The notes beneath the pieces were generated by a model that did not search any database, was not told the DNA's origin, and worked only from the letters and a program-made list of their open reading frames with translations. From Eledone cirrhosa (Eukaryota): a stretch of 64,000 nucleotides of DNA. This document shows positions 43,978 to 45,512 of this stretch, piece after piece (position 1 is the stretch's first letter; each line of letters opens with the position of its first letter). The position numbers and the translations under genes are program-made. Where the stretch lies: NCBI GenBank assembly GCA_964016885.1, contig OZ024745.1, positions 109,802,001-109,866,000 on the forward strand. Reading direction: 5' to 3'.

Positions 43978-44597
43978 TATATATATATAAATGGAATAGA
44001 ATGAAACAAAATTTCATTTCCCACTCTTAGTACGGCACTTACTTAAATGTAAGTATGTATGTATGTATACATACATATATATATGTATACAGACATACAG
44101 TAGTATGTATATATATATACATACATGCACACATATATATATGCACGTATCGGTTTACCGAACATTTATTATAATGCTCGGTTTGTTTGTTTGTAAATGT
44201 GTCAGTGTTGAACAAAAAGGTGATGTGGTTGCCTAAACACTGTACGGCGTAATTCGGGCTGTTTGTTTGTTTACAAACAAACAAACCGAGCATTATAATA
44301 AATGTTCGGTAAACCGATATGTGCATATATATATGTGTGCATGTATGTATATATATACATACTACTGTACATCTGTATACATATATGTATGTACGTATAC
44401 ATACATACATACTTACATTTAAGTAAGTGCCGTTCTAAGAGTGAGAAATGAAATTTCGTTTCATTCTATTCCATTTATCGTTTTCGGTGAGCCTGGCCGA
44501 CTGAACTCACTCGATATGCAAATTAAGCTGCTCAGCCGTTAATATGCATAAAGAAAGTATATACTTTCAGACGTTCAACCATCTGGCAGGAAGGTAT

Positions 44598-44640
44598 ACG
44601 ATGCTGACGATAGCTAATAAGCTTGAAACAAGTACACCGT
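44598..44640 (+). ncRNA. Minimal type I hammerhead ribozyme
   Basis: ACGATG-CTGACGA-T-AGCT(AATA)AGCT-T-GAAA-CAAG-TA-CACCGT. Intact CUGANGA/GAAA/GUA core; stem I has one mismatch; 4-bp stem II; minimal stem III. Confidence 0.75.
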
Positions 44641-44848
44641 TCCTGTGTCAGTGTTGAACAAAAAGGTGACGTGGTTGCCTAAACACTGTACGGCGTAATT
44701 CGGGCTGTTTGTTTGTTTACAAACAAACAAACCGAGCATTATAATGAATGTTCGGTAAACCGATACGTGCATATATATATATGTGTGCATGTATGTATAT
44801 ATATACATACTACTGTACGTCTGTATACATATATGTATGTACGTATAC

Positions 44849-45460
44849 CTATGTCAGGTCACCACTTGGTGCTACTGGTAACATGTATCCCAGTACAACC
44901 TGTCTCATGGTCGGGTCGTTGGCGACTAAACTGGCAACCCCACCAAGGTTTCTTGGTGAGGAGGGTGACTTTGGACATCCTGCAGGACTAAAAACAAAAC
45001 CTGTCAAAGGGCAAAGGAGCTCTTAAGAGTCAATGGCCATCCAAAATCTCTGGGAGAGATGACCCCTTAGCCTTTGTCAAGGCAGAATTCTAGGAGAAGG
45101 AAAACTCTGATATAACACCTGCAACTCTGATGGTATCCAATGATGTTGACTTGTTCTTTTTTTTGGTAAATATCATCTTGGTTAAGAGAGTGGGACTGGC
45201 TTTGTGCAGTGCCTTTGCTCACTATAAAAGCTTCACGGCACAGGCATTGCTTTATATCTGGAGATCTCTCTGCACTTGTCGTCACATGGTACCATGGGCC
45301 CAGCACTATGTGTCATTGATTGTCACAAGTGTAGTGTTTGTACCAGAGTTTTCAAGTCTCTGGCTGGACTAAAAAGTCACACTCGTTCAGCGCATCGGTA
45401 GGGGTTCTCCTACATGGATATAAAGTAGTGGCCGTACTCGAAGACGAGTTGGCAGCCACC
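44849..45460 (+). mobile_element. Internally deleted (bipartite) RTE-like element with 12-bp TSD
   Basis: TSD ATGTACGTATAC (44837-44848, 45461-45472). RTE-like 5' UTR motif CTAGGAGAAGGAAAACTCTGA. C-terminal C2H2 finger HKCSVCTRVFKSLAGLKSHTRSAHR* at 45324-45401. Confidence 0.75.
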
Positions 45461-45512
45461 ATGTACGTATACATACATACATACTTACATTTATATATAT
45501 ATATATTTATAT

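Follow-up and report, generated by a model that had tools for sequence, protein, structure and literature searches.

Insertions of a hammerhead-bearing retrozyme family in Eledone cirrhosa carry the two-site end signature of Penelope elements

Results

Two 3'-end sites and one tail per insertion

Insertions of a non-coding retrozyme family in the Eledone cirrhosa genome carry the two-site end signature of Penelope elements, which they have in common with Neptune-type elements of the same host. This signature emerged from an end census of 159 merged regions, a non-random sample drawn from several searches, in which arms of at least 45 nt were scored. Seven of the 263 arms touched a locus edge. 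The 3' ends of the other 256 fell at a "tail" site (122), in a "no-tail" class (109), or elsewhere (25), with the no-tail class defined by a wide interval of ~90 to 110 nt because alignment ends blur in the microsatellite. The two sites lie ~60 nt apart and both run into (TA)n; a microsatellite follows 202 of the 231 canonical 3' ends.

Eighty-four insertions were two-armed, with the arms head-to-head. After 22 with an edge or a noncanonical end were left out, 62 pairs were scorable, and 58 of these combined a tail with a no-tail end, as opposed to three no-tail/no-tail pairs and one tail/tail pair (p = 1e-13 versus 0.5). Inner junctions varied, unit numbers were non-integer (0.1 to 13), and no poly(A) tail was present. 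Partial tandems with an inverted, 5'-truncated arm, a tail at one end, and a microsatellite target are traits of Penelope elements. A tail at one end only is described for these elements in passages of PMC3846280 and bioRxiv 10.1101/2021.04.23.441226, and a passage of PMC11167929 calls the tail signature unique to them. One exception to the one-tail rule was seen in the window, by which we mean the whole 64,000-nt stretch analyzed: at 17095-17230, two tail-like segments of a related subfamily form a head-to-head palindrome around a short (TA)n.

The 5' ends were scattered around the unit. Seventy lay in the microsatellite, and among the other 192, 12 were located at +1 to +14 from the predicted cut, where 8.1 were expected (p = 0.12). 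The original prediction, made from the window alone, had presented a restart ~10 nt past the cut as characteristic of the element; across the family this interval was not enriched, and the restart was ruled out as a mark of RNA processing. Given the scatter, the restart is a truncation point, and reverse transcription would usually have passed the cut site. Three of the 192 5' ends were at +2, which could reflect a small share of linear cleaved templates.

One aged insertion in the window

The host genome (3.0 Gb) is rich in microsatellites, and the window, on G000:C5, contains one aged retrozyme insertion. A left (TA)n microsatellite, the target, occupies 43898-43989 (46 TA copies by TRF, no strand assigned). 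It is followed by an inverted arm on the minus strand (43987-44197), the reverse complement of unit positions 73-281 with 95% identity to the unit, whose outer end is the tail site. The main arm (44198-44643, plus strand) is one unit length, 446 nt, and begins at the 5' truncation/inversion junction; its longest stop-free frame is at most 88 codons. Within it, a small predicted hairpin (44412-44427, plus strand) holds the no-tail end site, at unit position ~220-224, in its loop, and the ~57-nt tail between the two end sites (44422-44478, plus strand) also has a predicted hairpin. A type I hammerhead spans 44583-44651 on the plus strand, with the predicted cut at 44634/44635. Its stem I pairs 44598-44603 with 44635-44640 and is extended by a distal stem, its core is formed by 44604-44610 and 44625-44634, and its stem II by 44612-44623.

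A second, partial unit (44644-44851, plus strand) continues seamlessly over the predicted cut with 96.6% identity, until it is interrupted by a nested, unrelated young repeat of 609 bp (44852-45460, plus strand), flanked by a 15-bp duplication (44837-44851 and 45461-45475) identical at 14 of 15 positions. The second unit resumes at 45461-45493 (plus strand), matching unit positions 192-224 at 33 of 33 bases, and ends at the no-tail site, beyond which lies a TA-rich flank (45494-45512, no strand assigned). The window insertion thus follows the tail/no-tail rule, with one arm at each end site. The 609-bp repeat was 98-100% identical over about its full length in 40 scored copies, and a microsatellite lay on either side in all eight loci viewed.

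Much of what had been read from the window alone was borne out. CTGACGA at 44604-44610, GAAA at 44625-44628, and GTA ending at 44634 are all where they were placed, an inverted partial copy does precede the unit, and (TA)n is present at both outer ends. The reported repetition is likewise real, since 44198-44403 recurs at 44644-44851 (96.6%, spacing 446), but 44198 is a 5' truncation point and not a unit boundary. The element has no reverse transcriptase plus GIY-YIG ORF of the kind that marks an autonomous Penelope-like element.

Other repeats occur nearby. Just after the element, at 45509-45819, is a 312-bp imperfect palindrome (88%) that is MITE-like. Two long frames of 625 and 1,166 codons (stop to stop) lie at 18330-23641; the longer has endonuclease, RT, and zf-RVT domains, indicating an apparently intact LINE, which we take to be of the L1/Tx1 type. 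Minisatellites are located at 24817-25486 (54 bp, 12 copies), 35681-36285 (148 bp, 4 copies), and 48824-49676 (40 bp, 21 copies).

A large family and a sister family

The bare core motif is no more frequent in the 64-kb window than expected by chance (6 matches versus 3.76 expected; at least 6 in 27 of 100 shuffles), and the significance of the hammerhead comes instead from a family of exact matches. A genome-wide copy search had been proposed as a check of the original prediction; the exact 30-mer gave 2,777 matches versus 0 for the reversed control. Three such patterns, this one included, which differ by one stem-I base and represent three subfamily classes, matched 2,777, 7,931, and 12,950 sites, again with no match to the reversed control. 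The genome therefore holds at least 23,658 hammerheads of this family (family 1), a lower bound because the patterns miss mutated copies. Like known non-LTR retrozymes, family 1 is dispersed and of high copy number. Its units are tandem, non-coding, and 420-500 nt long, with a GC content of 0.36-0.37 and no frame above 88 codons. Eight cluster representatives differed by 4-19% outside the microsatellite, and copy ages ranged from ~3% off the majority through to arrays with identical units.

A pattern designed to exclude family 1 returned 5,369 matches, and all 100 of the 100 listed first were assigned to a sister family. Its 465-468-nt unit is ~64% identical to family 1 in local alignment and 69% in global alignment; the order of its modules and both of its end sites are those of family 1. 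The sister family has G-C at 10.1-11.1 and a predicted GUU cut triplet. Among its loci (L301-L330 and L339-L348; e.g., G000:C1:30831000-30843000) are two-armed arrays with 7+13 and 11+11 cut sites that are nearly free of mutations.

An internal promoter was considered and dropped. The candidate motifs, which we presume to be octamer-like (44516-44523) and TATA-like (44556-44567), both lie inside predicted stems and are altered in the sister family.

The hammerhead and the predicted RNA fold

In the family hammerhead, stem I measures 6 bp and stem II 4 bp, there is an extended bulged stem, and loop III is palindromic. Every unit has one such type I hammerhead with a conserved core, atypical in its 10.1-11.1 pair, which is U-U in family 1; G10.1-C11.1 is given as conserved in hammerheads in PMC4209133. 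The "minimal" label used originally does not suit this motif, which in the terms of that source is a "canonical" metazoan type I motif by its stem and loop architecture. The same source describes the minimal hammerheads of Penelope-like elements as having a helix I of 4-5 bp, a helix II of 7-8 bp, and G10.1-C11.1, whereas here helix I is 6 bp with a distal extension, helix II is 4 bp, and U-U takes the place of the G-C pair. Canonical motifs with such an architecture are described there as working as dimers.

Core positions other than N7 were constant in 167-172 of 172 copies, although de-duplication of this set was imperfect and conservation is inflated by 30 loci picked through an exact core match. 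In the 172 copies, lineages differ at N7, in loop II, in the bulge of stem I, and at a single stem-I pair that occurs as G-U (90), A-U (66), or U-G (3). A single low-depth contig from another organism that aligns to window positions 44504-44756 has U-A at this pair, which in the host family is A-U, G-U, or U-G. Stem covariation was also found: 8 of the 22 hammerhead pairs change on both sides, a level reached in 0 of 500 shuffles, in an alignment of 10 chosen rows in which 7 of the 8 covarying pairs depend on a single sister-family row.

The predicted circular folds of two subfamilies had z-scores of -7.3 and -7.5 relative to 30 dinucleotide shuffles, partly due to the palindromic microsatellite. 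In an alignment of 9 sequences outside the microsatellite, both bases change in 11 of the 108 predicted pairs, with a covariation term of -0.91. The predicted fold of the sister family has a similar topology, and in both families the no-tail end is in the loop of a small predicted hairpin. The kept core in subfamilies that differ by up to 19%, the covariation, and the fold together suggest that selection acts at the RNA level.

Rfam found no hammerhead in the window copy, returning only miRNA noise driven by the microsatellite. An intact family-1 copy scored 17.6 bits on Rfam HH9, and the sister family scored 37.7 bits (E = 1.5e-8), the cut-off being 52.

Two bases of the window copy are atypical: at 44630 it has A where 164 of 172 copies have T, and at 44637 it has C where 159 of 172 have T. 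Its loop-III palindrome is broken and its stem I contains a mismatch. The family loop III is an ACUAGU palindrome with a predicted self-duplex of -6.8 kcal/mol, compared with -0.1 kcal/mol for the window copy, and proximal stem I has an ensemble probability of 0 in the window copy versus 0.56-0.94 in an intact copy of the same subfamily. The window insertion carries this one family-1 hammerhead and no second. With a single, damaged hammerhead it is predicted to be unable to release a monomer or yield a circle by double cleavage, and it is likely a dead end.

Array structure

Arrays cross the cut site without a scar, with up to 13+7 identical units. Derived alleles were shared by 20% between units of one arm, 41% between opposite arms, and 6% between different loci. 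Young family-1 insertions each carried their own haplotype with little variation among units. Of eight sister-family arrays, seven had variants absent from the majority in all of their full units, including 18 of 18 units across both arms of one array and 20 of 20 of another. For a new variant to fill a whole array, the array must presumably have passed through a single unit that then multiplied again, as a monomer circle would allow. Old arrays were star-like (24, 24, and 22 differences in L013; 8, 10, and 12 in L022; 13-32 in L198), which places the origin of most tandems at or shortly after insertion.

DNA-level duplication occurs in some arrays. Five (L191, L241, L244, L348, and one arm of the array at C1:56.39 Mb) had a 2- or 3-unit periodicity. 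A dimer-circle reading of L241 and L244 was rejected: of 1,416 and 2,968 candidates, respectively, 40 were scored in each case, and none was a sibling locus. The partial units at the ends of these two tested arrays agree with local duplication, a process that the arrays fit; identical units alone therefore do not prove rolling-circle copying. The adjacent inverted arms of L241 have late variants in common, so conversion can homogenize arms. The periodic arrays, including G000:C1:56386500-56402000, are apparently private to their loci and possibly represent early satellite formation.

Candidate partner elements

GIY-YIG domains are abundant in the genome. Of 10,596 candidates, 150 were scored, and most of those translated had a cysteine-rich linker like the one that bioRxiv 10.1101/2021.04.23.441226 describes for Neptune; our Neptune label refers to this linker motif and not to a tree. 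Locus L093 encodes 1,025 aa with RVT_1 and GIY-YIG domains; on one side it ends in an inverted repeat without a tail, on the other in a ~40-nt tail, and both ends run into (TA)n. In another family, both end types are represented, at loci L094 and L098.

The linkage of the unit to RT/GIY-YIG ORFs that the original prediction had suggested looking for did not appear, as no autonomous element homologous to the unit was present in 70 GIY-YIG loci taken from the 150 scored of 10,596 candidates. By blastn, the non-microsatellite parts of the unit matched only independent retrozyme copies in these 70 loci. Two degenerate hammerhead patterns recovered the sister family and 17 isolated motifs, with no Penelope-like frame recognized nearby. 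These isolated CUGANGA...GAAACUAGUH motifs (L349-L365; 1 reversed-control match) include several that share a loop-II hexamer but are without stem I, and they are possibly relics of older families. In one Neptune-type family (L090, L094, L095, L098, and L104), the 3' repeat contains a hammerhead-like motif of its own, whose loop is a GUAC palindrome and whose stem II has U-U at its base, as in family 1.

Discussion

On every sequence feature tested, the family belongs to the non-LTR retrozymes, with cleavage and the circle as predicted properties. As in the metazoan retrozymes described in passages of PMC7229834 and bioRxiv 10.64898/2026.07.22.740005, its tandem units are non-coding and low in GC (36-37%), each unit has one type I hammerhead, copies number in the thousands, the predicted circle is highly paired, and Penelope elements are co-resident. 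Its unit length of 420-500 nt compares with ~170-400 nt for the expressed circles and consensus lengths of 51-972 bp reported there, and it differs in its internal palindromic microsatellite and the U-U at 10.1-11.1. Two-armed insertions, tail asymmetry, and (TA)n targeting are not described in the portions of those texts consulted, and a search of the retrozyme literature, restricted to main texts, found no description of the tail asymmetry or of this family. In the main text of an octopus repeat annotation (PMC13282606), as far as consulted, the words hammerhead, retrozyme, and ribozyme are absent.

The family resembles the endonuclease-bearing Neptune-clade Penelope elements (passages of bioRxiv 10.1101/2021.04.23.441226, PMC3846280, and PMC11167929) in its partial tandems, inverted 5'-truncated arm, tail at one end, microsatellite or AT-rich targets, and hammerhead in the repeat. 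In contrast to them, it has no ORF, a tail of ~57-72 nt versus 30-40, and arrays of many short units, and its sequence matches none of the autonomous terminal repeats examined. Amphibian satellite-type hammerheads (Rfam HH9) have a similarly short palindromic helix III suited to double-hammerhead cleavage, but in the loci seen this family forms dispersed short arrays and no large blocks. The original idea of a non-autonomous, hammerhead-bearing, Penelope-type family that targets (TA)n and might form a ~450-nt circle holds at the family level. The kind of element is known; what is unusual is how good the genomic evidence on mechanism is, and the link to Penelope through end structure is direct.

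We consider it probable that a monomeric circle is copied by rolling circle through a co-resident Neptune-type Penelope RT/endonuclease. Read-through transcripts of arrays with at least two hammerheads would cut themselves, probably as double hammerheads held together by the ACUAGU palindrome, and the 420-500-nt monomer would be closed by a host ligase. Judging from end structure, the Penelope protein would cut both (TA)n strands and begin cDNA synthesis at two internal RNA positions separated by ~60 nt, each serving one DNA end. The expected product would be what the DNA displays: two head-to-head arms, one tailed and one not, with scattered 5' ends and 0.1-13 units. Arrays could grow later by block duplication at the DNA level, as is visible in some. 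In vitro, a Penelope protein cuts and extends both strands and starts at two internal RNA sites that bound the tail (passages of PMC11167929), so a free RNA 3' end is not needed. Points that weigh against this model include the absence of an autonomous element with a homologous terminal repeat from the 70 GIY-YIG loci, the U-U pair and low HH9 score of family 1, and the cleavage of only one of nine Xenopus retrozyme dimers (passage of bioRxiv 10.64898/2026.07.22.740005).

The same Penelope machinery might instead copy an uncut linear multimer transcribed from an array, with the hammerhead trimming only the ends and with duplication and conversion restoring length and uniformity. We regard this as unlikely but give it real weight, having considered evidence on both sides that includes the periodic arrays and the RNA substrate. 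In vitro, hammerhead mutants left Penelope insertion undiminished and unprocessed RNA was the main substrate (passages of PMC11167929); the local block duplications are real and the family-1 hammerhead is atypical, all of which would suit a multimer. Yet multimer copying would pass on unit-to-unit differences, while distinct insertions are uniform for their own haplotype over both arms. Old arrays also lack the nested similarity expected from fast duplication, and covariation runs round the monomer.

In a scenario discussed in bioRxiv 10.64898/2026.07.22.740005, an autonomous Penelope element leaves the unit behind as a solo terminal repeat, single copies disperse, and all tandems arise later by satellite-type unequal crossing-over. 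Passages of that source also report kinship to Penelope terminal repeats in Xenopus, and here the end chemistry is that of autonomous elements and periodic arrays exist. We nevertheless consider it highly improbable, with no parent among 70 loci, arms that can both be long and identical (7+13 and 11+11 cut sites), star-like old arrays, and two families that at ~64% identity keep their length and module order. If the hammerhead were incidental, the element could be a MITE-like DNA transposon, or an ordinary LINE might have moved it as a SINE. The inverted outer ends and the presence of L1/Tx1-like and other LINEs would fit such a reading, but it is largely refuted and has hardly any probability left. 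Against it stand the tail that distinguishes the two ends, the variable inner junctions, the non-integer unit numbers, the lack of a poly(A) tail, and the covarying ribozyme stems. Terminal inverted repeats and target site duplications typical of DNA transposons had been named beforehand as what would speak against a self-cleaving retroelement; family copies show neither identical inverted repeats nor a fixed length.

Beyond rolling-circle copying of a monomer as such, we offer a bolder version tentatively and think it rather doubtful. Viroid-like circles would form their own lineage that parasitizes Penelope, and the fold of the entire circle, beyond the ribozyme itself, would be a recognition signal kept through 30-35% divergence. 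A single circle, held at two fixed sites by a Penelope dimer, would seed both DNA ends of a break and be copied for up to 13 turns. If true, each insertion would record how processively a telomerase-related enzyme copies a circular template.

Passages of PMC7229834 and bioRxiv 10.64898/2026.07.22.740005 call it open which enzyme mobilizes animal retrozymes and whether the circle serves as template; the evidence there is co-occurrence and terminal-repeat similarity. In E. cirrhosa, very young arrays bear the Penelope tail signature beside a 1,025-aa Neptune-type ORF. A direct test of rolling-circle reverse transcription could thus draw on a defined RNA with two predicted start sites and on candidate proteins, and the arrays also display early steps of higher-order satellite formation.
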